Part shown: piece by piece, positions 2,968-33,336 of the stretch
How positions within the stretch are numbered: the stretch's first letter is position 1
How the letters are laid out: each line of letters opens with the position of its first letter
Origin: Amphiscolops sp. MND2022
Taxonomy: Eukaryota
Assembly: GCA_964187785.1 (NCBI GenBank)
Contig: OZ076409.1
Location: forward strand, 28,212,001-28,276,000
Direction: 5' to 3'
DNA length: 64,000 bases
The notes under the pieces: generated by a model
Databases searched by the model: none
The model's input: only the letters and a program-made list of their open reading frames with translations
What the model was told of the DNA's origin: nothing
Program-made: the position numbers and the translations under genes

Positions 2968-3407
2968 CTAAAAAGCAATAACTCAAAAAACAAATTAACC
3001 TCAGAAAAGTTCAAAAAATTATCAATAAAAATTCTTCTCAGTTTAACTTTCATTCAAACCCAAATTCTCACTCGGACCAGTCTCTCCTTTTCAACTCAAC
3101 AACATATTCACTTGCCCATCACAACTCAGCTCTCAACCAGAAGACTTCAACTGGATTTTCAGTCCATCTAAAAGACCGAAATTACAGAAGTTTCTATTCC
3201 TGGAATAGATGCCACTGTGATTGTTGATGTTTTCAACCCATCATTGATTCAGTATTCCCATATTGTAAGTACAATTTAAACTTCATTTTTAACAAACAAT
3301 TTAATGGATAGAAACGACATAACGAAATTTTTCCTCATTATTAGGAATAATATAATCAAACGTTATAATCATTATTTTAGCTCTACAAAAACACGCAAGT
3401 TTAAATA

Positions 3408-4626: not shown

Positions 4627-5039
4627 TCAGCTTTGTGCATTCGCACATCTTTAGACGAATTCAACTACACTATTGAAAAAATGCACCGATCTTAACTGGT
4701 AATTATGGGATAATCACTTTAAATTGTTAACACTTATCACTTAATCTCTTAACAACCTGTCAAAATTATTTGAGTCTACACGCATATGCCTGCTATGCAC
4801 GATTATAATACATGCTTGATGTTAAAATACTCTTGTAAAATAAAATAACATAAAAAATTTCAAACACGACATAAAAATTTTCAACAAAATTTCTCAATTG
4901 ATCCTCCTTTTAACGGACCGATTTCAACTAATAAGTACTTATATGAAAGATATTTAAATACCCTTCAAAAGACTTCCAAAATACAGCAACTTAATTCTTA
5001 AAATTAAAAAGTTATAACATCACAAATTTCATTTAAAAA

Positions 5040-13333: not shown

Positions 13334-13392
13334 GAGCGGTATTGATGCAGAATAAGGTAACCGTGCAATCGAAAGACCGCTCAGTTAGACGA

Positions 13393-14112
13393 TGTAACGA
13401 TAAGCGCTGGCGCTTGAACCGCAACGTAGAATGGAGGAACTAGAACAGCGAATATAATCTGGGACCTAGATCTCCGCGGCCCTAGCTCATTTTCCCTCCG
13501 AAGAAGCCAGTCCCAAGGTGGGGGAACCGTCTTGTTGGAAACTCTCTGGCCTGGTCCTAGTCTGTAACTGCTAAAAGTAACGGGCATCTTGCATGTCTCA
13601 AGACCACTGCTCAATTAGCCTTTAAAAAGGGGGCTGAAAACAGGAGGATGTTGAGCCATAGTATTGGAGAATCTGATAGAATCGACATCAAAAAGGGGTA
13701 ACCATAGATGTAAATGGGCAGCTCTCGAGCATATCAATCTACTACAACAAGGAAAGCACAACAAGCACAACAATATCGGAAGTTTGAGTTTTTAGTAGGA
13801 GCGAATTGACCATGGCTTCCCAGCGCTAGCGCTCGTCACCGCACAGGACGCCGCAGGATCTTCAGGCGAGCATCTGGAACACCGGTTTCTGTTGCCTATG
13901 TAGTGTAAACGCCATAGACCAAAGATGGGCACTTCACCGTGTTCTAGGGACTGTTTTCTACGTCTTCTCTTCTCGTCGTCTCTCGCGGGGGCGATTTCTG
14001 ATTTCTGATCTGCTTTTTTGACAGGTCTTTCGTCTGGAGCATGTTTGAGTGCCACGTCAGATTTGAACGAATTTTTGCTTCGAAAATTTTGACATGGGCA
14101 GTTGCCGTTACA
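13393..14112 (-). repeat. 3' LTR (720 bp)
   Basis: Matches 31580-32299 except two substitutions seen by eye (GAAGAAGCC/GAAGGAGCC; GATAGAATC/GATAAAATC). Confidence 0.98.
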
Positions 14113-14121
14113 TCACTCCCC
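14113..14121 (-). promoter_or_regulatory. polypurine tract
   Basis: Minus strand GGGGAGTGA directly precedes the TGTAAC of the 3' LTR. Confidence 0.85.
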
Positions 14122-14883
14122 GGGCTTCTGGCTTGTCGTCCCTGGCAAGCGGCATCTGGCCTCGTCTGGAAACGGCATCGCTGAGACTGCTGGGGATCAT
14201 CATCCACACCACAGGGGACAAGGACGAGTCCTTGTTTTTCAGCAACTATTTTCGACAAATTTCGCTGTTTTTTTTCAAAGAAAATTTTACTGCCTAGTAT
14301 TTTTACAAAAAGTGCAAACGAGGTTTTAGCACCAGCTCGAGAGCTAAGGTTTTCAGTCGGTTAAAACTCGTTTGGGCAAGCAGTTTTCGCTAAAAATTCT
14401 TTTGCGACCAAGGTCAGCTAAAATTTCCTTTTCCGTGCAACTTGTCATTTACAGTTTTCGATCAATTTCGGACAACATAAAACTTCTTTTGGGAGGGCGC
14501 CGCTTCGGCTACTCCTTAGACAGTCGATAGAAGGTGCTTGAGCACCAAAACACAAAAAAAACGGCAAAAATCGTAACTAAAAGGCTAAGACTTTTTCTAG
14601 ATCATGGCAACTCAAAAACACCGCGAACGGTGCGCAACAGAAATAACAGTTTTTCTTTGGTAATAGATTCTTTTTTACTTTGTAGGCGAAGCAGCTGGGG
14701 CAGGTGCACTCTATTGACCGTACACCCAGCGCATTACTAACAGTACAATAACTAAGTAATAACTATGAACAAAAATTTGCACCATGTAAGGGTAGCACCG
14801 GCTAAAGCGATAAGTTTGAAGGCACAGTTTCGGTAGAGTTTAGAGTCTATAGGGAGCGCGAACGCTCCCATTGGCGGCAGGGT

Positions 14884-17800
14884 TTATTGGGCTGAGCTGC
14901 GTCGAGCTCGATTCTTTATGGCATCATCGGGAGTTCCTGGATTGCTGGCATCTTCCGACGCAATTGACGCTCTACGTTGAGCAGGAACCACAGTAACTAC
15001 TGTTTCCGAGTCTGACAGGTCCTCTGGGAGCGTTAAATCGGCGATTGGCTGCACCAGGATAGTGCTGGGGGTCAGTTCAGCGTCGTGTTCTCCGGTCTGG
15101 GGTTGCGATGACTGAGGACTGGCCTGTGTCGATGGTGGACTCACAGGCTCTGCCTGCAGAATATGAGTGGGCAAATCCAGAGTCACGGGCCGGTCGATGG
15201 GCTGACTTAGTGACATGGCCATTGTGGGTGCCAGCATGGTAGGCGCGAACGCCTGTTGTCTCTCGAGTTCAGCTCTACTCTCCACGGCCAAGGATATCCG
15301 CTTGGAGACCCAGCCAGGCTGACTCCAGAGCTCGCAAGCTCGCTTCCATTTGGGGAAGCTGGCAATTTTCAGCTCCAAACAATGTCCTTCCCACTCTGCG
15401 CGGGCTTCAGAGCCTAGCACAGAATTAATCTCATCGTGTTGGACGATGGACATATCCCCTGACATCGTCATCTTGGCTTGCGGTCGCCAGGCAGCTTTTC
15501 TTGGGAACGGAGTCACACGGCTCTGCAGGTTCCTCTGACGAGTCTGAGCTGCTCCTTCAATCCAGTTTGGGATTTGAGCCAATTCCATATACTGGATTTG
15601 TCGATTGAAGGCTTCAGGGGCGCGACCAACGGGTTTTGCCCTAGGCCATCCCAGTGGCTCCTTCCAGTAGTGATTTGGGAAAGTGATGCATTTGAAAGCG
15701 TACAGGGGATCTACGGGTGGACCAGCACTAATGCTGGCTCGGATCACCTTGCGTATGAACTCCTGCGACCAGGGGAATCTAAAGGGGACTCCATTCAGGC
15801 TGAGAGGTGCGGAGTACCAGTTGACTGGGCCGTATTCTCGTGGCAAAGGGCACGCTTTTCGTGTGCGGGCACGCAACAGACCCATCAAATTCTCTTCTAG
15901 TTGTTTCTCCGACTTCAAGGTGGTGTACCCGTGCGGCATCTCGCCACTCAATACAGCCTGCACGATTCGCTGATAGGTCAGTGGGGGCCGTCCTTGGAGA
16001 TAGGTGCAGAAGGAGACCATATGCACCTGTACTGTTCTCGCCAGTGGTTTGGTGGGATACCGGCACACACCGACCGCACCGAAGATTGGAGCCAGGACGG
16101 AAGCCATAACGGCCACGAAGTCCTCCACTTCGACCAGAGTCAAATCGGCGATTTGCTGGGGCATGGGGAATCCCGCCGTTTCCGCAGGGAGTTGACGCTC
16201 GGAATGGTGGAGGGGTTGCGATTGATCCACGCCTACGAACAAGCCAGAGGCGAACACTAGGGTGGAGTACAACCAATGTTGGAGGGACGCACGCATGCGT
16301 TCCAGCTGGGCGACATAATCTTGCTGGTCCTTGGAATTTAGGAGGTGGCCCCATCGAGTTAGGCTGCGTAGTTGTCCCTGCGCGAGGATCAGGTAGCTGT
16401 AGAAAGTGACTAGATCACTGGACACTACCAACTCGACTAACATAGCAAGGGGACCTGCCACAAACTTCGTCGGGCCCATTGCTAGCGCGAGCGCTAACAT
16501 CTCTCCTACAGTAGCTTCGCCGATGGTTTCCAACAATTTGTCGGTCTGCACATTGGTGAGCAAGTACTCAGAGGCTATTACGTCGATGTTCCAGCCTAGT
16601 CCGAGACTGGTACAAAAGGCTTCCAAGGGACAGTTAAGCTCTTGAGCTACCTCGGCCAGGGTCCTGTCCACGAATCTGGACTGATACCATTCGGCATACG
16701 TTATTCCGGCGGCATCTACTTCAGCCTTCAAGTTGGTCGCCTCTATAGCCACGACGTACCTCATGCCCACGGGCAACTTGACGGGTTCTATTCCCGCGGC
16801 AAACCGAATCTGGGGAATGGTCCTTTCGACCGTGCGTGTGGCAGGCCAGGTTTCAATTTCCTTCACGAGCTCTGCCAGCTCTGCTCGTACGGGAATTTCT
16901 TTGTCCTTCCGCACCAGCCAGTTGTATCGTCGGACGGCCTCTCGTTCACTCATGTTGGATGCTCGCATGACGCGATTCCCGTCCAAGTCGAAGGCCATTC
17001 GCCCCATACACATTCCATGATCGAACAGTATGGCGTCGTCGATAGTCAGTTGTGCATTTCCTGATCGTTCCACAGCGATTAGTACTCTTGACACGGCAGC
17101 AAAGAAGGCGGGGTATGACAATGCGTCGGGGCGTAGGTCTCCTCGATCAACTCGCAGATTTGGCGCGCAAATAGCAAACTCGATTCGGCGCGCTTTGCAT
17201 ACCTCAGACAGGATGTACACAAATTGCTGCAAGCTTCGTTGCCAATACATGAATCCCGGCGGGGATGCGAAGAGCGCGAGCGCTCCCAGACGACCCCGAA
17301 GGATCCCTGCTGCACGCTCCATTGCGTCTGCAACCACGTTCACTAAGGACGCCACACTCCCAGGTCTGCGGGTATCTGCCATGAGGGCATCCAGGTTGCG
17401 TAGCACCCCTTCACAAGCCATGTGGTCGATCAGATTTGTGAAGACTACACGTCGCGGGGGCGGCTCTCTTAGAGACCCTCTCAGGTTAGGGTCGTACATG
17501 ACCGCGACCATCTCGGCAACCTCAGCGAAGCGGGAGAGTGGCATTGTTAATACCAACACATCGGGCAGAAGGTTGTCGATGGGGAGATCACTCCTAAGTG
17601 TCGAGTCTACTGCCACACAATAGCGCGCACGCTGCAGGGCCGCTTTCAGAAGGGGCTTCATTGATTTGATGTTGCGAGCATAGCGGGCGTTGGCTTCCCA
17701 GGTTTCCCCTTCGTGCAACATGTACCTAGCAGGAAATTGCTCGGTGAGGTCATGCTGCAGGCGAGCCATATAATTGTTGGGTGTCGCGGGCAGTTGCTCT

Positions 17801-19164
17801 CGAGCACGCTGTTCCCAGGCTTGCTCACTCATGTCCGCATCACGGGCACGTAGCGACCGAGTTATCTGAGCCGCAATGGTGATTCTGCTCACTTCTTTCT
17901 GGTCGGCGTCAGACGGCGGTGCCCTCCTTCTGATCGCACACGTGTTCGGGTACAAACACTCTGCCGCCATCCAGATGCGTTTGCTATCGCCAGTCACCAC
18001 TGTGCCGGATACGTCATCGGACGGGGGAAGAAAGGCGGGAGGATTGTTCTCATCGATTGTCTCGGACACCTCCAAGGACATGTTGGCAGAGCCTGTGCCC
18101 GAGGGCACAGGACTCGTTTCAGGATTCGCCTCCACACTGCCGTAGCGGTTGATGGCCTCTTCCAGGGACATCTGAGGCGCGCCTACGCCTAGGTGGCCGA
18201 CGCGATATGGAGGCCTCACGACCACCACACTTTTCATCTGCGACTGGTGGGGTACATCTGCTCGCTTGTCCGGAGGGGGACGACTGGTCGGACTGTCGGT
18301 CACGGAATCATGGCGTGTAGCGACGATATTTTCCTCAGTAAGTCGCTTCCGGCCAGTTTCCTCACGGGGATAGATCATGGCGCTGGTGCTTGGTCCAGCC
18401 GTAGTTTCTGCTTCCATAGACACAGTTTCGGCTAGGGTGGTGGGTGGGGTGACGCAGCCCGAGGGCTGAGCGGCAGCTTGCAAGTAATGTGTCAATCCGG
18501 GAATCCTTTGCTCAACGGCACGAACGAAGTCAGAGGAGTTGGGGTAGTTGGCGACAGCCTGCAGGGCCACAATCACCGCTTGCTCGCTGGGACTCCGTCC
18601 AATCAGATTTAGATTAGGCACTGATGGCGGTTGGGACCCCGAGGGCTCCCGACTTGAGGCAGGTTGATTGGTAATGTTCTGCGTCGTCGTTGCCCGGGTT
18701 CCATATGGTGCCCCACAAGCAATCGAGCTAGAATGCGGCGTCGTCTGCACTGGATTTGGTGCCGGAATGGAAGGCAGCGATGGGACGTTGACGGGCATCA
18801 TACGCAGTGATGTTTCTTGTTCGAATCTGGTGCCCTGGCTGGGACCATGCACTGCGATTGATCTTTCGTCCAAGAACTGGTGAGTCAGGTCGTGCCCATC
18901 CCAGGCATTGTTGGTGCACGTCAAGGTGCGACGATAGCTTGCCACCTCCGTGGTGATTGACAAAGATGCATTTGGCAGCATTTGCATCGATTCAAGCTGG
19001 GTCAGTAGGGCGGCCACCCCAGCTACGGCTACTGGCGAAAGACCGTCCCGCAGCCTTTCTTCGACATATTGGGCCTGATTGACCCTCTGCGCTCGCGCAG
19101 ATTCCTGGGGCCTTGCACTATTAGACCCGGTTGCAGGCGCTGAATTGTTTGGGCAATGGGCCAT
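14884..19164 (-). CDS. ORF2 of the giant element, 1426 aa, with a degenerate SGNH/GDSL-hydrolase-like domain; function unknown
   Basis: Intact long ORF between pol and the PPT. Low-complexity N- and C-termini. Central YCVAVDSTLR..VLVLTMP..RRVVFTNLIDH..ALFASPPG..DLRPDALSYPAFF resembles SGNH blocks I, II, III and V. No signal peptide. Confidence 0.88.
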   Translation of the reverse strand: MAHCPNNSAPATGSNSARPQESARAQRVNQAQYVEERLRDGLSPVAVAGVAALLTQLESMQMLPNASLSITTEVASYRRTLTCTNNAWDGHDLTHQFLDERSIAVHGPSQGTRFEQETSLRMMPVNVPSLPSIPAPNPVQTTPHSSSIACGAPYGTRATTTQNITNQPASSREPSGSQPPSVPNLNLIGRSPSEQAVIVALQAVANYPNSSDFVRAVEQRIPGLTHYLQAAAQPSGCVTPPTTLAETVSMEAETTAGPSTSAMIYPREETGRKRLTEENIVATRHDSVTDSPTSRPPPDKRADVPHQSQMKSVVVVRPPYRVGHLGVGAPQMSLEEAINRYGSVEANPETSPVPSGTGSANMSLEVSETIDENNPPAFLPPSDDVSGTVVTGDSKRIWMAAECLYPNTCAIRRRAPPSDADQKEVSRITIAAQITRSLRARDADMSEQAWEQRAREQLPATPNNYMARLQHDLTEQFPARYMLHEGETWEANARYARNIKSMKPLLKAALQRARYCVAVDSTLRSDLPIDNLLPDVLVLTMPLSRFAEVAEMVAVMYDPNLRGSLREPPPRRVVFTNLIDHMACEGVLRNLDALMADTRRPGSVASLVNVVADAMERAAGILRGRLGALALFASPPGFMYWQRSLQQFVYILSEVCKARRIEFAICAPNLRVDRGDLRPDALSYPAFFAAVSRVLIAVERSGNAQLTIDDAILFDHGMCMGRMAFDLDGNRVMRASNMSEREAVRRYNWLVRKDKEIPVRAELAELVKEIETWPATRTVERTIPQIRFAAGIEPVKLPVGMRYVVAIEATNLKAEVDAAGITYAEWYQSRFVDRTLAEVAQELNCPLEAFCTSLGLGWNIDVIASEYLLTNVQTDKLLETIGEATVGEMLALALAMGPTKFVAGPLAMLVELVVSSDLVTFYSYLILAQGQLRSLTRWGHLLNSKDQQDYVAQLERMRASLQHWLYSTLVFASGLFVGVDQSQPLHHSERQLPAETAGFPMPQQIADLTLVEVEDFVAVMASVLAPIFGAVGVCRYPTKPLARTVQVHMVSFCTYLQGRPPLTYQRIVQAVLSGEMPHGYTTLKSEKQLEENLMGLLRARTRKACPLPREYGPVNWYSAPLSLNGVPFRFPWSQEFIRKVIRASISAGPPVDPLYAFKCITFPNHYWKEPLGWPRAKPVGRAPEAFNRQIQYMELAQIPNWIEGAAQTRQRNLQSRVTPFPRKAAWRPQAKMTMSGDMSIVQHDEINSVLGSEARAEWEGHCLELKIASFPKWKRACELWSQPGWVSKRISLAVESRAELERQQAFAPTMLAPTMAMSLSQPIDRPVTLDLPTHILQAEPVSPPSTQASPQSSQPQTGEHDAELTPSTILVQPIADLTLPEDLSDSETVVTVVPAQRRASIASEDASNPGTPDDAIKNRARRSSAQ

Positions 19165-19176
19165 TAATGCATAGGT

Positions 19177-19200
19177 CTAAAAAGGACCACTGTTAAACTC
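19177..19200 (-). promoter_or_regulatory. putative splice acceptor for ORF2
   Basis: Minus strand GAGTTTAACAGTGGTCCTTTTTAG|ACCTATGCATTAATG has a branch-like TTTAAC, a pyrimidine tract and AG. The ORF2 frame opens exactly after this AG. Confidence 0.55.
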
Positions 19201-19458
19201 ACAGGGACAAGTTCTCTCTGGAACGAGCCGTGAGTCGGTTCGTCCTTCAATTGCAGCCAGGCAACGCCGGCTCCATAAAGGGGCCACTACAAACTTAAAA
19301 TCTAACTCTAACTAACTAATGAACTAGAACAAAACCTTGAGTGAAGAACATGACAAATTAACATCTCGAGAGCATTTCAAGGCTCTTCCAAGGTTGTTAC
19401 AAAAACTGTTACAAGAACTGAGGGCAAAGGAAAAATGGGGACAACTAAAATGAAAAGG

Positions 19459-22400
19459 CTACTTCAGCCCTATAGTTAATATTGATACATATACGCGGCT
19501 ATGCAAAACCACGTGAATACCAGTACCCTCGAACATGCTCGTTAGAGTATGGTACAGGTTAACCAACGAGAAAGCCGGTCTCTTGGGATCCAGAATCGGT
19601 AGGTGGACCCGTGTGGATCCTTTATCTATCAGGCGCTGTGTCAAGTGCGTCATGCAACGCAAGTAGTCGTCTGTCAGCAGCGGTGCGCGCTGGTTAGCAC
19701 GGACTATCAACAGGTGAATACTTTGGTTGGGGTTGGGGTTCACATCGGGCGGGATAGTGAGAATCTCGCCCACTTTAGGTCGTAAGGCAAATACATCTTC
19801 CATGCCGCACTCCCGCAGCACATATCGCAGGGCGGCAGAGTTGGTCTTTAGGTCAGCAGGGCATGCTAACACTATGTCGCCCTCGGCCTGCAAGAAATCG
19901 GACTCATCGTAAGAGACGTGTTCGGCTGAGTTCGGATACAGGGCTCCCGGGTAAACAATCTCTCGTCCGGGGCCATTATCGGGGGGCAGACACACGCGAG
20001 GGGTACGCCCTTGGACTGCAGCCAGGTCTTGCCACACTGAGCGGGGCATCGCTCGATTGTCGCTGCCGGCCTTTACCCACGCATCTAAAGTTCCCAGGGC
20101 GGCTTTGGGGAACAAGGGGATCTCGAAAGTGTGAGTCCACTCATCTAATAGTCGAATTCTGGGATGGGTGGCGAAACATGTGATTATTAGTTCCAGCCAC
20201 CACGCGAACTTCATCTTGCCTCGGTACCAGTCTATGATATGGAAGCAAAGTATTAAGTCCACAGTGGTGAGGGTCCTCAGACTCTCCAGACAGGATAACA
20301 GATTCAACGGTTCCACCAGCGCCTCCACTCGTGGAGCTGTTACCAGCAGCCACCAGTGAGGAGCCGGGCTGTATACCCCTCCTGGTTCCACCTGGACTCC
20401 ATACTTGTCGCATAACAAGTCAGCAGTGATGCATCGGACCATCTGCACAGGTTCCCTTTCAAAATTGAATGGTCCAAACGCAATATTACTAGGCACGGGG
20501 GGCAACACCGTGGGCAGGGTAAACTCCAGGCCCTTTCCATCGCTAGTCCACTCCTTAAACCTAGGACAAGGGGCCTTCGCTACCCCAGGCAGTGACAACT
20601 TCTCCAGGATAGTGTCCACAGGGTAGTCTCCGGACCGCTCTACAGCTGAGTAGGTTTTTTCGGCCCGCACCGTGAGGCGGTATACCAAGTTTTCTCTCTC
20701 TTCCGGAGGAACTCCCCGGGCTCCAATGGGAACCCTCCGGTTCTCATTCACAGCAAATAAGCAGACACAATCTCGCAGCCCGCAGGTTCCACACTTGTAG
20801 CGCGGCTGTCGCTTACTCCTTAGTTGATACCTAAGAGCAGTTGCAGATGCTTCTGTTAGCGTCTCTGCAGTTCTGGGAGCTTCCGTTTCGGCCTGGATCG
20901 CAGTTTCAGTTTCAGCTTTTCTCGGTGTTTCTTTCTTCCTCGTTCTTGCCTTCGCTCGAATCAGCCGTTTCTTCTGTGCCTTAGGTGGTCTCCCCCTCCC
21001 CCTTTTAAAAGAAGGAGCGGTCCCCGCTCCTGGCGAGGTCTCGGGAGCATCAGGCAGATCGGGCTGAACGTCGCTGTCGCTGCTGGCAGATTTGAGGGGA
21101 ATCGGAGGGGCGGTCGGCCATATGGGATAGTTACTAAGAAAGTTGGTTAGCGAGGGATTCGTCAACAAGGATGCTGAGGTTCCTGGTAACGATGTCTCTT
21201 CTTCAGAGGATATCTGCGGAGACGGTGAGCGCACGCGCTCATGGTCAGAGAACAGTTGGGGTAGTACACGGGCAGGGGATATCGACTGATCCAATGTAGT
21301 CGGAGGAGCCGCAGGCTCCACCCTATCCTCGTCAACGGGATTAGGAGGTATTGGCAACATGGCATCGGATAGTTCGTCGTCTGTACCCGAGGTGGAATAG
21401 TCAAATTGCTGATAATGCGGGCGGGAGCCGCCTGCGCGAAGCTTCGTGCGTAGTCGAGTGTCCATCCAGTGACGTCGACGTGAGGGCAAAGATGCATCGG
21501 ACGCCTCTGAAAGTAGTTGTTCGGGTTTATACGACGAGAAAGACTGGTCGTCATCAACTACGTCGACGGAACGTTCAGGTTCGGGGTCCATGAGGACCAC
21601 CACCTCACCACTGTCCGAGTGTGCAGTAGCAAGTTCAAGTGGGCCACTGTGGTGCGGTTTGAGACGCTCAAAATGAACCTTTTGACCTGTGTCTAGTACA
21701 TAGACACGACCGTCCTGAAAAACTTGTACCACTTTGTGCGGGCCTCGCCAGGCACGCATCAATTTCGGGGAACCCTTTTGCGGTACGTAGCGGCAAAAAA
21801 CCCAGACGAGCTCGCCTACTTGGTAAGCTCGCGCTTGTATAGCACGGTCGTACTTTAATTTTTGACGCAATTGGGCTTGGTGCGTATTACGCCGTACCAG
21901 GTCATGTATTTCCTGTTGGCGAGCCAGTACATGATCGACATACGCCTCATGCGACTCGAATGATTTGGCAGCAAACTCGGGATACAAGAACGTGAGAGGG
22001 ATGGCCTTCTCTACGCCACGGGTCAGCATATAGGGTGAGAAGCCAGTGGTAGCGTGCCTCGTAGAGTTGTAGGCACCCATGACCTCATCAAGACATTGGT
22101 CCCAATCGCGCATACGGCGGGAACAAAAAACTCGCAGTAGGGTCAGCAGCGTCCGATTTTGGCGCTCGACCAAGCCTTGGGTTCTCGGATGGCTAGCTGT
22201 AGAGGTTACTTTGGTAACGTGGGCTGCTTTTAGGAATTCGTTGGACACCTCGGCAGTCAAATTAGGGGCATTGTCAGACTGCATCCTAGTGGGTGTGCCA
22301 TGACGGGCGAACCACTTTTGTAACAGCAACCGAGAGGTAGTCACAGCGTCGTAGTCATGATGACTACAGGGCACTGCTTCCGCGAACTTGGAGAAATGGT

Positions 22401-25400
22401 CAATTATGACCAAGATGCCAGTGTTATTACTGTCTGAGGGGCAGATTTTCAGATGATCATATTGAACCAATTCGTTGAAGTATCCGCTTTGGATGTTCTT
22501 TAGATGGAATCGGACGTCACCAGGCTTATCCCGCACTTGTTGACAGGTGAGGCATTGGCCAACGTAACGGCCCACGCTGCGCCGAATACCAGGCCATGTG
22601 TGACGTTCTTGAATCCTAGCCACCACTTTGGAGATACCTTGATGTCCCATGGCGTCATGCGCGCGGAATAAAATCTCATGCTGGTACAGTTGTGGCATGA
22701 CGATCATGCACGGACGTTCGTGCAGGGGACGTTGGTTGGGAGGGTATTGTACGCAAAGTACACCATTCTTGTTGATAAACAGGAGGGTTTTCTTCTGGCG
22801 GTAGTAGTTGCGTGCGAACTCACGCACGTTCTCGGGAAACACGTCGTGATCAATAGATTCGTTCAGCACCAACTTTTTGAGTGCTAGCACATGAACATCA
22901 CGGTTTTGGGCTAGAACCAAATCTTTGATACCATGCACGGTGTGAGCATGTTCGTGAAGTTCAGTGTTGATATCTTTAAGAGCCATAATTGAGTCGCGCA
23001 CACCCGAGGGAGTACCTTGCAACGCCACAGGATTCGCCCCGGCAATAGCATAGACGGTACGCGAGGGAACATTTACGGCATGCGTTGGCAATAGATAATC
23101 TTCGCGTGCTTCATCAGTCACATCAATCCAATCCTCAGGGTAGTCTGGATAGGCATCCTCGTGCGGTTGCAGAGCAAGGGCAGGCGGAGGTGGCAAAGGG
23201 GCTGCGAATGCTTTCGCTTGTCTGTCCCTCCTGCTCGCTCGTTTGGTGCGGCGAAGCACGCGTAGCAATTGGTCGGGAGCCTTAGGCTCCAAGTTCTGCA
23301 GGTGCGCAGGTAACTCGGGATGGTTCGGGATGACTCGACCCTGAAGGTCGAACCATGGGGCAACAGGTAGCTTATCAAATTCGTCAGCTGAAAGAAAGTT
23401 CCAGCGTTCGCCCGCAGCTGGCTGCTGTGCAAGCTGTTTTTCGCGGCATCGGTACTCGTTGGTTCGTTTGCTCAAGCCATCGGCGTTTCGATGTTGGGTC
23501 CTTGGGCGGTGTTCCACGCGAAAGTGATATTTCTCCAGGGTCATGATCCATCGGCCGATTAATGCTTGATCCGTGGAGTAGGTTTTCAACCAGGACAAAG
23601 CTTGGTTGTCCACCCGCAGGGTGAATTTTCGGGGACATAGATAGCTGTGGTTCTTCACTATGAAATAGTAAGCGGCGAACATTTCAAGTTTGGGGGCTCC
23701 GTATTTGGCTTGTGTGGTGGTGAGCTTCTTGCTACCGTAAACTATCGGTCTCAGGCGTCGTTCACCCGGAGGACCTTGCCACTGGTGCAGGATACCCGAA
23801 ATGGCGACAGCACTAGCGTCAGTGTCCAACACAAACTCTCCTTCGGAATCAGGCTGCGCGAGCGCAGTTGCCTCGATTAGGGCTTTTTTGATCTCATTGA
23901 ATGCGGTTTGTTGCTCAGGACCCCAGGCGAAGGTGGCATTCAGTCCAGTGACGGCGTGCAGGGGTGCAACCAGCTTAGCGTGCCAAGGAATGAATTCGCG
24001 ATAATAGTTGGCAAATCCAAGGAAACTCTGCATCTCCGTCTTGTTACGGGGAATTTCCCAATCACGCAACTTGACGACGGCTTTTGGGTCGGGCTTCACT
24101 CCTTCTGCGGACACCACTCGTCCCAAATACTTGATTTCCGATTTCATGAAATCGCATTTGGCCACGCGCATTTTGAAACCGGCTTCACGGAGACATTCAA
24201 AGACTTCACGTAGACGTACCATATGGTCTTCCACAGTCTCCGTGGCAATCACGATATCATCAATGTAGGCCATGACCATGCTGCCCTCACGATTGACAAT
24301 ATTCCTTAGCGCACGCGCTATTGACCGTTGAAACGTGGCAGATGCATTGCACATACCAAATGGCATTCGCCGCCACTCAAAAAGTCCTAATTCGCAAGCA
24401 AAAGCGGTTTTGTGGCGATCCGCTTTGCGCACGGGAATTTGCCAAAAGGCCCAAGCAAGGTCTATGCTGGTATAGATCTTTGCTTTGCCTAGCCGTGCCA
24501 GGCTTTCATCGATGCGGGGCAAGGGATAAGCATCCTTAATGGTTACCTCATTTAACGGGCGGAAGTCGCAGCAAAAGCGCAACTCCCCGTTTTTCTTTTT
24601 CACCATTACAATGCCGCTCGCCCAGGGGGACAGCGAGGGCTGTATCATTCCCAGAGCTAATAGGTTCCGTACCTCCTGATTGGCACGTTCGGCCTTCTCA
24701 GGGGACATCCGGCGAGCACCTTCGCGATGCGGTACAGCCCCTGGTTCCACCTCCACGGTGTGCTTAGAGATAGTGCACCGACCGATGTCTGCTTTGTGTT
24801 TCATGAACAGCTCATCAAATTCATCGAGGAGGTTACGGAGAGACTCGCAGGCGCTAGCGCCCCACAAATCCTTGACCGCCTTGAGCTGAGATTCCGGCCC
24901 AGGAATCGGAGCCATTAGCTCTGGGTCCGTTCGTTTGCGAATCTCGCGCTCCGATAGTCCTGCCTCGCTAGGGTCAGTAGAGGACAAAAACTCAAATTCG
25001 GAAGAAGAGGTTAACTCAGAAGCAGTGGATAGATTCACTTCACTATAAATTTTATGAACAAAATTTGCACGACTGTCGTCGGCGTCAGTTTTTGTGCGGG
25101 TTGTAGTGGGAGAGTCCAAACATTGAGGTACTGCTTGGTATACTACCGTTACGGGTACTACGGTGCCCAGTTGTACACCACACCGCATGCGTTGAGGGTT
25201 GCTGGTGAGATTTATCAGGCTCACAAAGAGTGTTCCTGTCTCACTGACAGTGGCCACGCTGTCCTCTAAAAAGACGACATTGTGCAACGTAGTGTCAGAC
25301 AAAGAGGCATTGAGCGCTACGCTTTGAAATATCAGCGGCTCTAGTGTGTTGGTGACGAGCTTGGCTCTAGCCACCGCTCGTTCAAAAGGTTGCAGGACCA

Positions 25401-28400
25401 AGTCACTGTCCAAAACGACTGGAGTAGCTATTGAAGTGTCACCTACCTGTGCGTGAGCATGATGCCACACAGGCTTCACTGGTGCTCGCACCACAATCTT
25501 CATAGATGTTAGATCCACTAACACCTGGTAGGAGCGAAGAAAGTTCCGGCCAAGTAGGAAGTCTTCCACACCCATTGCGTCATCTACCACCACAAAGTTC
25601 GTTTCAAGTTCGTATCCTCCCAGCTGGAAATGGATGTGTTCTGCGAGGCCGTAGGTTTTTATTGTCTTCCCGTTGGCTGCGTATAGGTCAACTTGGTAGG
25701 GTTTAAGTACCGTTCCAGTTCGAGCTGCCACTCTGTTGAAGGCGGAAAACGTCAGTATGGAGACGCCCGAGCCAGTGTCCACCAGCCCTCGCAGCGGAAT
25801 AGGTGCTGCATGAGGCACCACGAAAGAGACCACGAGCGACGCACGCTCATCTATACGCGCTTCGCCGGTGGGCTCCTGGTGATTGATGTTATAGCATTTG
25901 AGCTCCTGGGGACCCAGACAAATGCCAGTGGGAAATACATCCACCACCACACAGGCTTCGAATTTCATGTCCACTCCATCCATTGAAGCGCAGACTGGCA
26001 CTGGGGAATACGTTGTCAGAGTCGCAGACTCTCCCGGAGCGTACCATTCTTTCGGTCGAGGCAACTCGTTTCGTTTGTAGAGGATAGATAATTCGACCCA
26101 TAGCTTCGCCAGAGTTAGCGTCGGCCTATGTGTTTGCTCAGCTGCCAGCAACAGGTGAATGGAAATCAGCGTACGTCCTTGCGGATCGAACGTTGTGGGT
26201 TCCAAGCAGGTTTGAACTTGCTTAGCACCACAAGTGAATGTCATCGGAGTGTGGAACGCAGGCGGTTCCGCTGGATGTAGCATCAACACACGGTCATCTT
26301 CCAAAGGTACGGTGTGCGCGGCGATGCCAGCTGATTCGACCTCAGCCCACCGATTGTAGGCCAACTCTTCATTGGGTTTCGGCGCATGGGAGTGCTCTCC
26401 ACATTGCACTTCCGCCTGATCAAAAAGGCCACAGCTCGCGCATTGATAGATCCCTGGATGACCTTCAAGGATACCATCGGTCGTGTCTTCCGTGGTCACC
26501 TTCACGCCCTCTGGTTCGGAGGCAGTCATCGGTTTTCGAGCCTGGTCACGATTGGGGCACTCGCGAGCAAAATGTCCGTTTTGCCCACAGTGAAAACAAG
26601 CACCTACTGGCGCTCGGACGGGAGCTGGGACAGCCGGAGCTGGGACATTTTGGGGGGGCGCCGGAGGTGGCAAGACGCCCTGCGGCATAACCATCTTGTT
26701 CGGCGGTAGTGGTGCGAAAGGATGAGGTCTAGACCTCATGGCTAATCGGGGATCATAGGGTTGTTGAGGTTGGGTAGGCCTGGGACGATTGCGTTGCAGC
26801 TGACGTGTGGTGAATCGCAAGGACTCCACGGTAGGGGGTTCGGTAAGAAAAGTTTCCGAGGCGTATACTATAGCAAGTTCACGCCTCAACACTGGATCTC
26901 GCACACCTTCCATGAAGCGTTGCAAGATTTCATAGCGTTTCGTAGTGATACTTTCTTGCGGGAACCCTTGGCTCCTGAGACCCTCTAAAGCGTCTAAGTA
27001 CTGCATCCAGTCTTCTTTTTCTTGTTGGACGCGGCTTTGGAAAGTCTGCCGCACCTGCATGCGATTTCCTCCCGCGCCAAATCGACTAGATAGCAACTCG
27101 AACACCTTCTCGGGGGTGTCACGTTCAGACTCTGCCTTGTTGATGATGTAGTTGCGAGCCTCACCTTCGAGGTGACCGATAATACTCCAGGCCCGATCTT
27201 CGGCCGAGATTTTGGTTTGGGTTCTCTTTAAGTATCGCTGCATCACTAGGATCCAGCCATCAATAGACCCGTCCTTAGAGCCTCGATACACACTGGGTTT
27301 GGTCTGAGCCAGGTCACGTCCCGCAAGTAACGGTGCTAGTTCTTTGGACATTGCTTTGGAAATGGCGGCAGTGAACCTCAATTGCTCAGGAGAAATGACT
27401 TCAGCCTCTCCTTCTTTAGGCGCCACATCATCAGTGCCGTCGTCACTGCCATGCGTAGCTCGCACTGAGAGGTTCGTCACGTCTTCTTTCCTGCGAGTGC
27501 TGCTCGCGCAAGGAGCGCCCGAGGGCATCCCGTCCTCAGCTGGCCAGTCGGCGGTCAGATACATGGAGTCCGTTCCAGAAACCATGGTAGGGGCCGTCAC
27601 ATACGCAGCTCCATCAGTCTGGGACCCTAGTGTGGCCTTAGTACAGGATAAATCAACTTCGGTAGAAGTATCTAGATAGATAGGTGACATCGGGTCCACA
27701 CCTTGGTCTCGGGTGGCACTTCGAACTATGGAGGATGTCATTTGGCTCATCGACGAGGAGTCGTGGGGCCCTCTTACCTGCACCCGTGCAGGTTTGCGCT
27801 CCACAGCAGCCATGATGGGCACAGGATCCCTGGTTCGGGTTTCAGGCGTTGTCGACTTGGAGGTGCTGGGCTTCAATACGCTCGCCAACTCGGGTTTTGT
27901 TGCCTGACTCCGGTGCGATGATTCCGTGGCCTTCATTGAATCCGCGATCGGCACACCTTCAGTGGCACCAGCTTGTCGTGGGAGGGACCTTTCGCGCCTC
28001 ATGATGTTGATAGCATTGAGCACAGTGTGCATTTGGTTACTCAAATCATTGATCTGGGTTTCCACACGAAGTTCACGGGCCATCAGAAGGTCATTCATCT
28101 CACCCATCCTGTAGCCTAGTGCATCTACGCGAGCGCTCTGCGTGTTCTGCGCGGTTCGCAGTTGATCACTGACCTGCAGACCTTCTCGCATCGTTGTCTG
28201 CAATGTTCTCATATTTTCTGCGATGGCACGGTGTTGGTCATTGCATCCAGCACGAGTGCTAGCCAGTTCAGCTAAGGCACGTTGGGTCTCGGCTTGGGCT
28301 TCCAATATTGCTGCTTTGTACACCGAAGATCGTTGGGATGATGCCACTGAACCTGCCACGCTCCTCTTACGAGGCACCTCAACTTGACGTTCACCTACAT

Positions 28401-29013
28401 TTATCATGGGTGGTCGCACTTTCTTGTGTTTGCCATAAGCACAAACTCTAGTGTTACTTCGAGTGACTCCAGTCCCTTGCGGTCTCGCACCACTCGTGTT
28501 TTCCGAGTAGGTAAGATCCTCATCCACCGTGATTTGTAGGCGAGAGCTCATTTGTTCCCTTAGGGGTGCGCGAGAGCACCCTTCCTCAGCTGCAAGTTCG
28601 TTGGTCACGTTTGAGTTGGGCCACTCTTCTTCTGCTTCATTGGCTCTTTCACGACAGGTTTCTTCGACCCATTGTTCGGTTCGACGAGAGCTTCCAGATG
28701 CAACGGAACCCTCGGAGGGAGGGACCATGGCGGCCAGTTCCTCCTTTCGTTGTTGCTCGATAGTGACTTCGTCAGACATTTCGTCTGAAAAATGCGAACC
28801 ATCCATTGTGGATCCTATGGTCACCCATGACTGCGAACTCATGTCAAGCTTTTCCAGGCCTGGTAGGACCATTACACACAATGCCAATGGCAGAGCAGGT
28901 GTCAACGATTCGGACGTAGCCTTTGAAGAAGCCTCGAAAAACGCGGGATTTGTCGAGTCGCTGTTAGCTTTAGGCTCGTCTCGGTGTGGACTTAAGAAAT
29001 TTGACTGTTTCAC
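19459..29013 (-). CDS. Gag-Pol polyprotein (first ATG at 28872, 3137 aa): capsid, CCHC, pseudo-protease + protease, dUTPase-like, RT, RNase H, integrase, AT-hook, two macrodomains
   Basis: CFHCGQNGHFAREC (~26557-26598); LVDTGSG (DTG 25771-25779) with LLGRNFL; RT YIDD (24256-24267); RNase H LDTDAS..LE..VDNQAL; integrase HDAMGH..CLTC, SDNA, VERQN, WRGPH; KRGRGRPPK (~20980-21006); TARG1-like C-terminus. Confidence 0.98.
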   Translation of the reverse strand: MKQSNFLSPHRDEPKANSDSTNPAFFEASSKATSESLTPALPLALCVMVLPGLEKLDMSSQSWVTIGSTMDGSHFSDEMSDEVTIEQQRKEELAAMVPPSEGSVASGSSRRTEQWVEETCRERANEAEEEWPNSNVTNELAAEEGCSRAPLREQMSSRLQITVDEDLTYSENTSGARPQGTGVTRSNTRVCAYGKHKKVRPPMINVGERQVEVPRKRSVAGSVASSQRSSVYKAAILEAQAETQRALAELASTRAGCNDQHRAIAENMRTLQTTMREGLQVSDQLRTAQNTQSARVDALGYRMGEMNDLLMARELRVETQINDLSNQMHTVLNAINIMRRERSLPRQAGATEGVPIADSMKATESSHRSQATKPELASVLKPSTSKSTTPETRTRDPVPIMAAVERKPARVQVRGPHDSSSMSQMTSSIVRSATRDQGVDPMSPIYLDTSTEVDLSCTKATLGSQTDGAAYVTAPTMVSGTDSMYLTADWPAEDGMPSGAPCASSTRRKEDVTNLSVRATHGSDDGTDDVAPKEGEAEVISPEQLRFTAAISKAMSKELAPLLAGRDLAQTKPSVYRGSKDGSIDGWILVMQRYLKRTQTKISAEDRAWSIIGHLEGEARNYIINKAESERDTPEKVFELLSSRFGAGGNRMQVRQTFQSRVQQEKEDWMQYLDALEGLRSQGFPQESITTKRYEILQRFMEGVRDPVLRRELAIVYASETFLTEPPTVESLRFTTRQLQRNRPRPTQPQQPYDPRLAMRSRPHPFAPLPPNKMVMPQGVLPPPAPPQNVPAPAVPAPVRAPVGACFHCGQNGHFARECPNRDQARKPMTASEPEGVKVTTEDTTDGILEGHPGIYQCASCGLFDQAEVQCGEHSHAPKPNEELAYNRWAEVESAGIAAHTVPLEDDRVLMLHPAEPPAFHTPMTFTCGAKQVQTCLEPTTFDPQGRTLISIHLLLAAEQTHRPTLTLAKLWVELSILYKRNELPRPKEWYAPGESATLTTYSPVPVCASMDGVDMKFEACVVVDVFPTGICLGPQELKCYNINHQEPTGEARIDERASLVVSFVVPHAAPIPLRGLVDTGSGVSILTFSAFNRVAARTGTVLKPYQVDLYAANGKTIKTYGLAEHIHFQLGGYELETNFVVVDDAMGVEDFLLGRNFLRSYQVLVDLTSMKIVVRAPVKPVWHHAHAQVGDTSIATPVVLDSDLVLQPFERAVARAKLVTNTLEPLIFQSVALNASLSDTTLHNVVFLEDSVATVSETGTLFVSLINLTSNPQRMRCGVQLGTVVPVTVVYQAVPQCLDSPTTTRTKTDADDSRANFVHKIYSEVNLSTASELTSSSEFEFLSSTDPSEAGLSEREIRKRTDPELMAPIPGPESQLKAVKDLWGASACESLRNLLDEFDELFMKHKADIGRCTISKHTVEVEPGAVPHREGARRMSPEKAERANQEVRNLLALGMIQPSLSPWASGIVMVKKKNGELRFCCDFRPLNEVTIKDAYPLPRIDESLARLGKAKIYTSIDLAWAFWQIPVRKADRHKTAFACELGLFEWRRMPFGMCNASATFQRSIARALRNIVNREGSMVMAYIDDIVIATETVEDHMVRLREVFECLREAGFKMRVAKCDFMKSEIKYLGRVVSAEGVKPDPKAVVKLRDWEIPRNKTEMQSFLGFANYYREFIPWHAKLVAPLHAVTGLNATFAWGPEQQTAFNEIKKALIEATALAQPDSEGEFVLDTDASAVAISGILHQWQGPPGERRLRPIVYGSKKLTTTQAKYGAPKLEMFAAYYFIVKNHSYLCPRKFTLRVDNQALSWLKTYSTDQALIGRWIMTLEKYHFRVEHRPRTQHRNADGLSKRTNEYRCREKQLAQQPAAGERWNFLSADEFDKLPVAPWFDLQGRVIPNHPELPAHLQNLEPKAPDQLLRVLRRTKRASRRDRQAKAFAAPLPPPPALALQPHEDAYPDYPEDWIDVTDEAREDYLLPTHAVNVPSRTVYAIAGANPVALQGTPSGVRDSIMALKDINTELHEHAHTVHGIKDLVLAQNRDVHVLALKKLVLNESIDHDVFPENVREFARNYYRQKKTLLFINKNGVLCVQYPPNQRPLHERPCMIVMPQLYQHEILFRAHDAMGHQGISKVVARIQERHTWPGIRRSVGRYVGQCLTCQQVRDKPGDVRFHLKNIQSGYFNELVQYDHLKICPSDSNNTGILVIIDHFSKFAEAVPCSHHDYDAVTTSRLLLQKWFARHGTPTRMQSDNAPNLTAEVSNEFLKAAHVTKVTSTASHPRTQGLVERQNRTLLTLLRVFCSRRMRDWDQCLDEVMGAYNSTRHATTGFSPYMLTRGVEKAIPLTFLYPEFAAKSFESHEAYVDHVLARQQEIHDLVRRNTHQAQLRQKLKYDRAIQARAYQVGELVWVFCRYVPQKGSPKLMRAWRGPHKVVQVFQDGRVYVLDTGQKVHFERLKPHHSGPLELATAHSDSGEVVVLMDPEPERSVDVVDDDQSFSSYKPEQLLSEASDASLPSRRRHWMDTRLRTKLRAGGSRPHYQQFDYSTSGTDDELSDAMLPIPPNPVDEDRVEPAAPPTTLDQSISPARVLPQLFSDHERVRSPSPQISSEEETSLPGTSASLLTNPSLTNFLSNYPIWPTAPPIPLKSASSDSDVQPDLPDAPETSPGAGTAPSFKRGRGRPPKAQKKRLIRAKARTRKKETPRKAETETAIQAETEAPRTAETLTEASATALRYQLRSKRQPRYKCGTCGLRDCVCLFAVNENRRVPIGARGVPPEERENLVYRLTVRAEKTYSAVERSGDYPVDTILEKLSLPGVAKAPCPRFKEWTSDGKGLEFTLPTVLPPVPSNIAFGPFNFEREPVQMVRCITADLLCDKYGVQVEPGGVYSPAPHWWLLVTAPRVEALVEPLNLLSCLESLRTLTTVDLILCFHIIDWYRGKMKFAWWLELIITCFATHPRIRLLDEWTHTFEIPLFPKAALGTLDAWVKAGSDNRAMPRSVWQDLAAVQGRTPRVCLPPDNGPGREIVYPGALYPNSAEHVSYDESDFLQAEGDIVLACPADLKTNSAALRYVLRECGMEDVFALRPKVGEILTIPPDVNPNPNQSIHLLIVRANQRAPLLTDDYLRCMTHLTQRLIDKGSTRVHLPILDPKRPAFSLVNLYHTLTSMFEGTGIHVVLHSRVYVSILTIGLK

Positions 29014-30099
29014 AACGTCCCAAATTTCTCGAAATACGTTTTAAGGCTCGTAGGCTGTTCAAATTTACACAGCGCTTTTCCACAAGCACACTGGGCCAGA
29101 AAATCAACCTGGTTCGGGGCAAAACGTCTCCGGTCACTCACAGGAAGAATTTCAAAGATTTTTTGGGTTTTCCAAAATTTGCACTACAACACTCAAGAGG
29201 CTCGTGTGTGCGCTGGAGGCGTTGTATCAAGCCCAAAATTGACCAGCAGATCTTAGGTACGTGTAGGTTTACGAAAATAAACACAGTTTTGAGCTGCGCC
29301 CCTTCTACACAGTTTCGCCTAGGTACAGACGTGCGGTACCACTATGTACCAAAATACACTGTTTTTTCACGTCTTTTTCAAGATTGCGGTCCACTGAAAA
29401 AAGCTAGCAAGCTCAAATTCTCTGCAACGACGTAGGAACTAGCACAGGTTACGATGATGGGCTGCAATATGGCCCCACCCGTCGGCTAAGGTGCCCGGGT
29501 TACTTGGAAAAATTAAGAAAAAACTGCCTTTTTGCACGCCTTTTTGGGTGCCACGTTTTTCCTATTTTCTCAACAAGTATCACACAGATCGGCACCAAAC
29601 TTGGTAGTTCATGCCAGTGGGCACCTACAATGCCGCTGATATGGTCGAATTGAAGCGCAAGCGCTTATTTGAAGTCCCGACCCACTATGTACGTTGTACA
29701 CGAAAAAACACTGTTTTTGACGACTTTTTTCACAAATTGACCAAGAGGATCACCTCAGAAAGTAATACGGCGGGCAAAATGGGACCAACGTGTCGCCCCA
29801 CTATCCGTAGCACTGGGATAAACCCTCAATTGGTTGTGCCCGTTAGGTATAAGGCACTGACAGTCTTGCAGTTTTGGATTTTTTCGGCTTTTTCAGCTTC
29901 TCTGGAGTCAAAACGTCAGAGAGCTTTTCTCGACTTTGGGGAACGATACGCCCACCAAAATTTCGGCACTAACGTTACTTTTTGTGGTGGTTACGAAAAT
30001 GCAACCACTTTTTGGCTAGGGTTCAGGAATCGATGACCCGACCCTAGCTCAGAGACAGTCCGGTTTTGTGGAAAATTGATCAGATTCAGTGCGTTTTTC

Positions 30100-30369
30100 C
30101 ACTTTTCTCAGCACTGAATGGGAGTTTTTGCATGCGGTTTTCACCACAATGCGTAAATTTTATTGTAAAAACAGAAAATGAGAGCGCGAAAGCTCCTAGC
30201 TAACAAAAAGACAGAGTGCCCAAGGGGTTTTAATTGCGTACTCAGACACTCCTGAAGCTGACTAAAATTCAAGGTTTTTCAACTTTTCTCAACACTGAAA
30301 AGGAGTTTTTGCACGCGGCTTTCACCACAATGCACTATCTTTATTGCCAGAACGGAAAATAAGAGCGTT
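30100..30369. repeat. diverged ~90 bp direct repeat in the 5' leader of the giant element
   Basis: ACTTTTCTCA.CACTGAA..GGAGTTTTTGCA.GCGG.TTTCACCACAATGC occurs at ~30101 and ~30282. Confidence 0.85.
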
Positions 30370-31547
30370 CAAACTCGCTCTGGTCCACTAAGCTTCACCC
30401 TCAAGACTTTCAGACAATGCACTTTCTATGCCTAAAAACACCTTAAATTACCGTTTTTTTGCACCGTGTCAGCCCCAGGCTGCCTGAATCCGCTGTAAAA
30501 GTTACAGTTAGTGTCCTGTGGGTCTACTACGCTTGACAAAACACCGTACACTGCTTTTTCATACTTCTACACCAGTGTACGCCTGTATTTCTGGGTGCCA
30601 TTTTGGTCAAAATTCCACTTTTTTGCAATTTTCTGGTGCTAGACCGGCACTTTTATCACAACCAAAGGCAAAATTACGGCCTTCTGTGCCTCGTACTAGC
30701 TTTCTCGAGCCTTGCAGCTGCTTTTTACAACACTTTTCACGAAGTTTTCCTGGCTCCGTTGAGCACAAGTGCTCAAAACCACGAAAAACACGAAAAAAAC
30801 GCAAAATCAGGGTTTTTTCACGCAAGTGCTATCTTTTTTGCAGAAAAGCACTTCGTAGGGTGTCGTTACATCTACAACAAAACATTACTGACCTGCACCA
30901 ACGATTCCCCGTCGAAAAAGGTGCATTTTCAAAATTTTCACCGACCATGAGCCATTTGAGCGACGCGTCCGGTCACAGGGGGTGCACCTTCACCACGCTT
31001 TTTATCCACATCCAGACCAGATAGAGACACGCGGGTTGGACCATTAGCATCGTCTGCAATTGCACTTGCTGTCCACCAAAAACCATACCTCTAGGACGTC
31101 TCCACGAGAAATGGGAGTAGGAAGTAGGCAACACACAATTTGACTTCCCCTTCGCCTCGCTGGTTCATGGTCAGCCATCCACCAGTCACCCTCTTGCATG
31201 GCATAAAATGGCTGAAAATAGCTTGCAAAACCTGTTAAACACCCGTAGCCACGTGCTACGGTCTTCAGCACCTGCAAAAAGATACCCGCTGATGGGCACA
31301 CAACACATCACACAAAAATATCGATTTCCTTCCAAAACACCTAAAAATACCATTTTCGCACCTGAAAACGTGATTTTTTCGGGTTTTCTCTGGTTCAACG
31401 CTCCTCCCAGTTCCAGTAGAATGTCACACGACTAAAAAAGGGCAAAACTCTGCTTCTCTCTCCTTCTTCAGAGTCGAAACGGGCTTGGCGCTGATTACCA
31501 GGGGGCCAGATCTTTTAAAAACCGCTAGGGAAAGCTTCCCAAGACGA

Positions 31548-31564
31548 TCCCTCTGTGGTCGCCA
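31548..31564 (-). promoter_or_regulatory. primer binding site, tRNA-Arg-like
   Basis: Minus strand TGGCGACCACAGAGGGA is complementary to a tRNA 3' end (..TCCCTCTGTGGTCGCCA) and lies 15 nt inside the 5' LTR boundary. Confidence 0.8.
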
Positions 31565-31579
31565 AAAAATGAGGTTCTA

Positions 31580-32299
31580 TGTAACGATAAGCGCTGGCGC
31601 TTGAACCGCAACGTAGAATGGAGGAACTAGAACAGCGAATATAATCTGGGACCTAGATCTCCGCGGCCCTAGCTCATTTTCCCTCCGAAGGAGCCAGTCC
31701 CAAGGTGGGGGAACCGTCTTGTTGGAAACTCTCTGGCCTGGTCCTAGTCTGTAACTGCTAAAAGTAACGGGCATCTTGCATGTCTCAAGACCACTGCTCA
31801 ATTAGCCTTTAAAAAGGGGGCTGAAAACAGGAGGATGTTGAGCCATAGTATTGGAGAATCTGATAAAATCGACATCAAAAAGGGGTAACCATAGATGTAA
31901 ATGGGCAGCTCTCGAGCATATCAATCTACTACAACAAGGAAAGCACAACAAGCACAACAATATCGGAAGTTTGAGTTTTTAGTAGGAGCGAATTGACCAT
32001 GGCTTCCCAGCGCTAGCGCTCGTCACCGCACAGGACGCCGCAGGATCTTCAGGCGAGCATCTGGAACACCGGTTTCTGTTGCCTATGTAGTGTAAACGCC
32101 ATAGACCAAAGATGGGCACTTCACCGTGTTCTAGGGACTGTTTTCTACGTCTTCTCTTCTCGTCGTCTCTCGCGGGGGCGATTTCTGATTTCTGATCTGC
32201 TTTTTTGACAGGTCTTTCGTCTGGAGCATGTTTGAGTGCCACGTCAGATTTGAACGAATTTTTGCTTCGAAAATTTTGACATGGGCAGTTGCCGTTACA
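31580..32299 (-). repeat. 5' LTR (720 bp)
   Basis: TGTAAC...GTTACA, near-identical to 13393-14112, adjacent to the PBS. Confidence 0.98.
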
Positions 32300-33336
32300 C
32301 GACAGTGTAAGTGATCGATTTTGCATGCATTCCTATTTCAGTTCCTCTCACAACTGGTAATGATTTCGTAATCGGAGAATATTTCAACTAATCTGAGTGA
32401 ACATTGATAATTTAGGAACAGCGAATAGTCTTCCAATTGATCAATCGGCCAGTTGAGTGTTTGTCCAATTGAGCTAGACACGGAAGAAGGGAGGATCGCA
32501 TAATCGTACCATTACAATTTTTTAAGAGCTTATGTTGATCATAGTCTTTTTGCTTCAGAAACCTGGGCTATCCATGAATCGAAATCGATGTCTACAGAGA
32601 TAATCTTGCAATGTCTGGGCCGCCAAAGAGGCACAGATTACTACAAAAACTTCGAGAGAAACCAACAGCTTGTTTCAAAAGGTCACGTGTTCACCAGAGA
32701 CAAGTATTGGCTGCAAGCGATTTTTGGTAATTCCAAGTTTTCGATCATTGCATTGAAATAAATTTTCACTACCTCGTTTTGGTTGAAAACTTCTGAGAAA
32801 TCGGGATTTTTTATCAGTTCAATGAATGCATCTCTTTAAGGTGTACTCCTTCCAACTTTAGTGACTCCCAAAAAATTGAATCGTGACGATGGGACCACAC
32901 GATTATATTTTTTACAGGTTCCTGATGTGTTCCTATCATGTTGTTGAAGTACCAAATCAATGCGATTCAATTAGTTATGAGACCATCTTGATGTGTACCG
33001 TGCCGTTCAAAAATATGTAATTATCTGAACTTTGCTCTTGTCGAAAAATCATGGAATTAGATTTCTTTGGATATTCATCTGAAAAAAGTATGATGAACCA
33101 AACTTCCACCAAACATTATGGTCTTTTATTTGAAACTTTAATTGAGGTTTCAAAAGTTTTATAAATTCTTGTTTTCAGGAGTTTTGGCTATTTTGAACCT
33201 ACTAAAACAATATTTCGAAAACAACTAATTCTCTTCGTTTTTCAAAGAAGGTCAAATAATTATCATAATTTTAAGATCAATATGAGACAAAGCAGTCTGT
33301 TTAAAGAAAAAAATATAGGTATTTTGACTTTTTAAG

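Follow-up and report, generated by a model that had tools for sequence, protein, structure and literature searches.

A predicted tandem of remodelled TARG1-type macrodomains at the C-terminus of a Ty3/Gypsy Gag-Pol polyprotein

The stretch of DNA analysed here, 64,000 nucleotides from Amphiscolops sp. MND2022 (assembly GCA_964187785.1, contig OZ076409.1, positions 28,212,001 to 28,276,000; hereafter the window), contains a full-length Ty3/Gypsy long terminal repeat (LTR) retrotransposon, whose Gag-Pol polyprotein, encoded by open reading frame 1 (ORF1), ends in two tandem domains that are very probably TARG1-type macrodomains. Their ADP-ribose pocket appears to have been remodelled. The best explanation that we can offer overall, and one that we hold tentatively, is that a captured macrodomain was remodelled, duplicated and turned into a tether that does not rely on ADP-ribose.

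An earlier, sequence-only reading of the window had noticed the tandem, and had staked its claim beforehand on a macro fold being predicted. Profile and fold comparisons bear it out on both counts, with TARG1 as the nearest fold. We regard the distal domain as a TARG1-type macrodomain with near certainty. Its fold, predicted with high confidence, is that of a minimal macrodomain, closest to TARG1 and then to DarG; it matches the TARG1 profile at E 1.4e-5 and 2.6e-5, and the intact macrodomains of other transposons, described below, at a probability of 96.5%. Its identity to TARG1 is 12-13%, and the window's own tail sequence gave no Pfam match to a macrodomain. The proximal copy, which we consider a macrodomain homologue with somewhat less assurance, is without the first strand and retains little of loop 1. 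It matches the distal domain at probabilities of 92% and 91%, exceeding 40 of 40 shuffles, and its homology to macrodomains is transitive only, by way of the distal domain (the figure against intact domains being 12%).

Pocket positions were compared in 47 distal rows, retained from 92 after filtering at 80% identity, with counts taken over non-gap rows. TARG1 residues are numbered from the printed chain after a shift of six, and G43, I44, K84, G123, and D125 then come out as they appear in the papers; the register comes from sequence alignment only. The position of K84 is occupied by arginine in 42 of 47 rows and by lysine in one of 47, whilst D125 is retained in none (0/34). G43 is replaced by serine in 33 of 41 rows and is likewise never kept; G121 is aspartate in 29/36 and glycine in 3/36; and at G123 there is glutamate in 21, lysine in four (the window included), and glycine in four of 37 rows. 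The equivalent of D20 is retained in 28 of 35 rows. These substitutions are fixed family-wide, and the remodelled loop 2 is itself conserved. The median net charge of the distal domains is -2, as against +6 for intact domains, and the isoelectric points (pI) in the window are 6.4 (distal) and 6.8 (proximal).

In this register, the Lys84/Asp125 dyad and both glycine loops (G43/I44 and G121/G123) of the TARG1 glycohydrolase are replaced, as the sequence-only reading had reported, and the domain is likely to be catalytically dead. Its inference that the domains are dead goes further than can be proven, given that SCO6735 is an active hydrolase that has neither Lys84 nor Asp125, and that DarG keeps only the lysine, according to PMC7050489 and PMC9411070. 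These precedents would suit a tail that is still a hydrolase, working by a new mechanism on ADP-ribosylated nucleic-acid ends (DNA or RNA) or element proteins, as would the intact domains in other Gypsy lineages, which imply that elements of this kind profit from the activity. However, both glycine loops are replaced and the equivalent TARG1 single mutants are inactive, making such an enzyme very unlikely.

A non-catalytic domain might nevertheless read ADP-ribose or poly(ADP-ribose) (PAR), and thereby guide insertion into chromatin that is damaged or ADP-ribosylated, or soak up PARP signals; targeting of this kind and a decoy for PARP-based defence had both been put forward in the sequence-only reading. 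Neither proposal sits well with a pocket that has glutamate or lysine at G123 in 25 of 37 rows, aspartate at G121, and no glycine at G43. In TARG1, the G123E change stops both ADP-ribose binding and recruitment to damage (PMC5928194). Moreover, the basic character that serves PAR and RNA is gone, and the proximal copy is the truncated one. Judged by its residues, the pocket is probably incapable of binding ADP-ribose. Because of the pocket substitutions and the loss of charge, an ADP-ribose targeting function is disfavoured, and we think a reader of either kind unlikely.

The genome holds at least four subfamilies of the element (the window's and three further), three of which have more than 100 matches each. 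Selection on the tail was judged from pairwise rates. Comparison with four copies of subfamily C gave a proportion of synonymous differences (pS) of 0.71-0.88 and non-synonymous rates (dN) of 0.12-0.14 for the proximal and 0.26-0.27 for the distal domain, and among 29 young copies the common changes in the two-domain region were 29 synonymous to 9 non-synonymous. Both domains are under purifying selection. Between subfamilies, the tail is ~40% identical, compared with 20-35% for several other ORF1 stretches. The low identity to TARG1 and the missing Pfam match could be taken as signs of a functionless relic at the end of the frame, but strong purifying selection in both domains largely refutes this, the tail is better conserved than those other stretches, and the fold is predicted with high confidence, so that a relic is barely credible. 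As the pocket looks blocked yet is conserved, the domain has probably been reused as a binding module, and not as an enzyme.

The C-terminal region of the integrase ends at FERLKP (residue 2457), and the macrodomains begin ~400 amino acids further on, with a long low-complexity spacer in between. The position that the sequence-only reading had likened to that of a chromodomain therefore holds loosely, in that the tail is C-terminal to the integrase, but not in its distance or in the spacer that precedes it. Upstream of the pair are a GRGRP motif in a basic patch, which we take to be AT-hook-like, and an RYxLR motif with, after it, conserved cysteines in a CxxC-x4-CxC cluster. The cluster may possibly be a zinc site, and RYxLR a nucleosome anchor; its Tyr-x-x-Arg spacing is that of Y537/R540, the nucleosome anchor of foamy-virus Gag (PMC12125541), although this is a resemblance only.

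In the explanation that we prefer, the tandem pair would no longer bind or cleave ADP-ribose, and would be a folded module for protein binding, carried on the product that bears the integrase. Together with the AT-hook-like, RYxLR, and cysteine motifs, it would anchor the integration complex on chromatin or on some chromatin factor of the host, without reading ADP-ribose. Such tethering is what the chromodomain does in chromoviruses, and as the job of this tail we put it no higher than a reasonable possibility. Two points weigh against this explanation. First, the 44 flanks of the scored insertions (insertion-site bias being a check that the sequence-only reading had suggested) are of ordinary composition, contain no tRNA genes, and exhibit no target bias, contrary to tethering to a special target. 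Second, the activity of SCO6735 without either catalytic residue, together with the alignment-only register, cautions against calling the pocket dead.

That no target bias was seen at the scored sites would accord with a role apart from target choice, in which the tail binds a silencing factor of the host and blocks it, or serves as a scaffold for the particle, perhaps with the product of the second frame, ORF2. In keeping with such a role, the number and size of the subfamilies mark an unusually successful clade, ORF2 is retained alongside the tail, and ADP-ribosylation can silence retrotransposons, as PMC4695847 describes for SIRT6-KAP1 on L1. However, the tail is fused behind the integrase and adjoins DNA- and nucleosome-type motifs, and the domains look conserved rather than fast-evolving, as far as pairwise rates can tell. 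We consider a counter-defence or particle role improbable.

The ends of the element are unusual. At all 22 scored sites the target-site duplication measured exactly 3 bp, the sites comprising 12 pairs and the window in the window's subfamily, and nine of ten fetched copies of the second subfamily; left out of the scoring were the tenth such copy, which has a damaged LTR end, and six unpaired loci among 30 fetched. Besides the window, the scored sites lie in L051-L078 and L105-L122. They thus depart throughout from the 4-6 bp usual for LTR elements, Gypsy included, a range that is typical but not strictly defining according to PMC2253517. The sites have a weak A/T preference, 30 of 44 strand readings having an A four bases to the left of the centre. 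The primer-binding site starts 15 nt after the 5′ LTR, and 16 nt after it in the second subfamily (L105-L123), an offset that raises the question of DNA-end processing. The tRNA-Arg that matches the primer site also occurs as a large tandem array with ~174-bp spacing (G000:C9 from ~57.54 Mb; L102-L104); the tRNA-Arg pattern has 255 matches in the genome, and 99 of the first 100 listed fall within this array. We found no description of 3-bp duplications in LTR elements in the literature, our coverage of which was incomplete. In its own right, the strict 3-bp duplication would represent an integration geometry new to retroviral-type integrases, and such elements would fail LTR finders set to a minimum duplication of 4 bp, a setting tabulated in PMC2253517.

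These odd ends, both the duplication and the primer offset, would also be in line with a nucleic-acid-binding module, similar to coronavirus Mac2/Mac3 or to the pocket-independent RNA binding of TARG1, and acting in packaging, in reverse transcription, or at the unusual DNA ends themselves. Mac2 and Mac3 are without hydrolase activity and have nucleic acids or host proteins as ligands (PMC9087173), and RNA binding survives in TARG1-G123E. Yet RNA binding by TARG1 is credited to basic patches, whereas the tail domains are neutral to acidic; a local basic patch would be compatible with their net charge. On balance, we find this use of the tail unlikely.

Versions with intact catalytic residues, for which the sequence-only reading had suggested a survey, were found in other Gypsy lineages. 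A Macro search of the genome gave six matches among 150 scored, three of them after the integrase in another Gypsy family, and these after-integrase domains match TARG1 at E 1e-27. A search with one of them recovered 20 proteins, 12 with the domain after the integrase and eight after RNase H (Pfam was applied to 9/20); in P0216-P0223 it lies between RNase H and integrase of Gypsy Pol, which represents a second insertion site. K84 and D125 are kept in 21 of 21 intact TARG1-like rows. The intact domains (L034-L036/L048; P0217-P0223, P0216) are of the same class and in the same type of polyprotein as those of the window, and that of L048 is also located after the integrase. Unlike the window's, they are single and retain K84, D125, AGI, and (mostly) GxGLD. 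Reverse transcriptase identity to the window's element is 24% for L048 and 33% for P0217, and the lineages reflect either separate captures or a very old split.

In a tree of 43 macrodomain rows, a fully supported branch separates the 24 remodelled rows from the rest. The sequences suggest that P0186 and P0180, which keep G123 and have no proximal copy within the residues available, branch first among the remodelled rows (midpoint root, no outgroup). The proximal copy carries the new loop-2 Asp of the distal domain in 33/39 rows and its Arg in 28/39, and we therefore place the loop change before the duplication. An ancestor would first have captured a TARG1-like eraser, the loop 2 of which was then altered from I-G-C-G-L-D, as in TARG1, to I-D-P-G-R, as in the early-branching, single-domain P0180 and P0186. 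Duplication would have left the new Asp and Arg in both copies, and the distal copy would subsequently have acquired a large charged residue at G123.

The other Gypsy family with the domain after its integrase (L048:2840-9813, L049:513-4667) comprises gag and a pol with a weak dUTPase-like match. It has two further ORFs without a credible Pfam match, one env-like (783 codons) and one antisense (382 codons) in which a JmjC-like pattern is visible by eye. Macro matches in host sequence include what appears by eye to be a macroH2A-like gene (L033:136-1956; a histone H2A exon and a macro exon), and L031 and L032.

The tail is a member of the TARG1 fold class, but not a TARG1 enzyme, and the element is not a chromovirus. 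Chromoviruses are Gypsy elements with a chromodomain after the integrase, and resemble the window's element in that Pol ends in a folded domain of host origin with a link to chromatin. They differ in the fold, in the number of copies, and in the distance from the integrase. No chromodomain was among the 10 Pfam families found in the element at E ≤ 1, and with a tail that folds as a macrodomain, chromovirus identity was rejected. From human TARG1 (OARD1, C6orf130; PDB 4J5R, 4J5S; ALC1-like class), the tail is distinguished, beyond its pocket, by being acidic rather than basic, tandem, and fused to a retrotransposon polyprotein. The nearest working analogy, and only an analogy, is Mac2/Mac3 (the SARS-unique domain) of coronavirus nsp3 as presented in PMC9087173, although the present domains are of TARG1-type origin and are carried by an LTR retrotransposon, and there is no active macrodomain in the same protein. 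Capture of macro domains by LTR retroelements is also reported from fish, whose epsilon-like endogenous retroviruses, being vertebrate retroviruses, have them as additional ORFs (Basta et al. 2009, as cited in PMC4977317). TARG1-type domains within Gypsy Pol were not described in the literature that we covered, again incompletely, and PMC12336834 gave no match to the terms looked for.

A broader and more doubtful proposal is that these elements are an undescribed Gypsy clade with re-engineered integration, combining a 3-bp stagger, a 15-16 nt end offset, and a tandem pseudo-macrodomain as guide, whose target would be a chromatin protein of the host or a non-ADP-ribose ligand, and that erasers were captured repeatedly, with a graded path to the pseudoenzyme. 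Integrase tails set the landing sites of LTR elements, and few tail modules are known. If true, a pair of pseudoenzymes derived from TARG1 would add a new one, as well as being a natural test of the ligands of closed-pocket macrodomains, and with intact domains at two Gypsy positions it would mean that LTR retrotransposons have captured ADP-ribose erasers repeatedly. The domains form a graded series, namely an intact one after the integrase, an intact one between RNase H and integrase, a single remodelled copy, and a remodelled tandem, and with it the question of whether ADP-ribosylation acts on animal LTR retrotransposons can be put to the test.

The features of the element are listed in Table 1. 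Its two LTRs are 99.7% identical with TG...CA termini, and ORF1 encodes a zinc knuckle, protease, reverse transcriptase, RNase H, and integrase in the Ty3/Gypsy order (Pfam), which, together with the tRNA primer site, places it in this group. The last 160 residues of ORF1 have matches of 96-100% in all 150 scored of 3,484 candidates in the genome, spread over all 13 large contigs, and a 3,193-codon frame surrounds the match in 39/150 by hand count; the element is young and abundant. The second subfamily has intact frames of ~3,240-3,330 codons and its own ORF2, and is 81% identical to the window's element in reverse transcriptase and ~40% in the tail. ORF2 gave no match in Pfam and no credible match in the PDB; by eye, it has an SGNH-like alpha/beta core and a hydrophobic stretch (also at L047:5415-9623).

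Table 1. Features of the retrotransposon, in window coordinates
Feature	Position	Strand	Basis or remark
Ty3/Gypsy LTR retrotransposon, full-length, 18,907 bp	13393..32299	-	LTR pair and gag, protease, reverse transcriptase, RNase H, integrase order
Target-site duplication, 3 bp	left 13390..13392, right 32300..32302	.	
5′ LTR, 720 bp	31580..32299	-	
18-nt primer-binding site, complement of the host tRNA-Arg(TCG) 3′ end including CCA	31547..31564	-	
ORF1 (Gag-Pol), 3,193 codons between stops	19459..29040	-	
Reverse transcriptase	24121..24603	-	Pfam RVT_1, E 1.3e-34
Integrase zinc-binding and core	22186..22695	-	Integrase_H2C2 E 4.3e-15; rve E 3.5e-7
GRGRP motif in basic patch	20980..21006	-	Conserved in both young subfamilies
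RYxLR motif, then cysteine cluster	20761..20832	-	Conserved across subfamilies
Proximal shortened macro-like paralogue, ~104 aa	20143..20454	-	Similarity to distal domain
Distal TARG1-type (ALC1-like class) macrodomain, remodelled pocket	19495..19926	-	Profile, fold, and alignment comparisons
ORF2, 1,430 codons	14884..19176	-	Counterpart in second subfamily, 1,403 codons
3′ LTR, 720 bp	13393..14112	-	Short purine-rich tract just before it (minus-strand sense)

The window also contains other inserts. Broken ORFs at 385-5567 belong to another retroelement-like insert, the first pieces of which are envelope-glycoprotein-like by eye. A frameshifted reverse transcriptase fragment at 49166-50358 is, by eye, of non-LTR (LINE-like) type, and pieces of another Gypsy integrase region lie at 59647-62869, with an 819-bp tandem duplication at 59941-61595 that is 99.8% identical.
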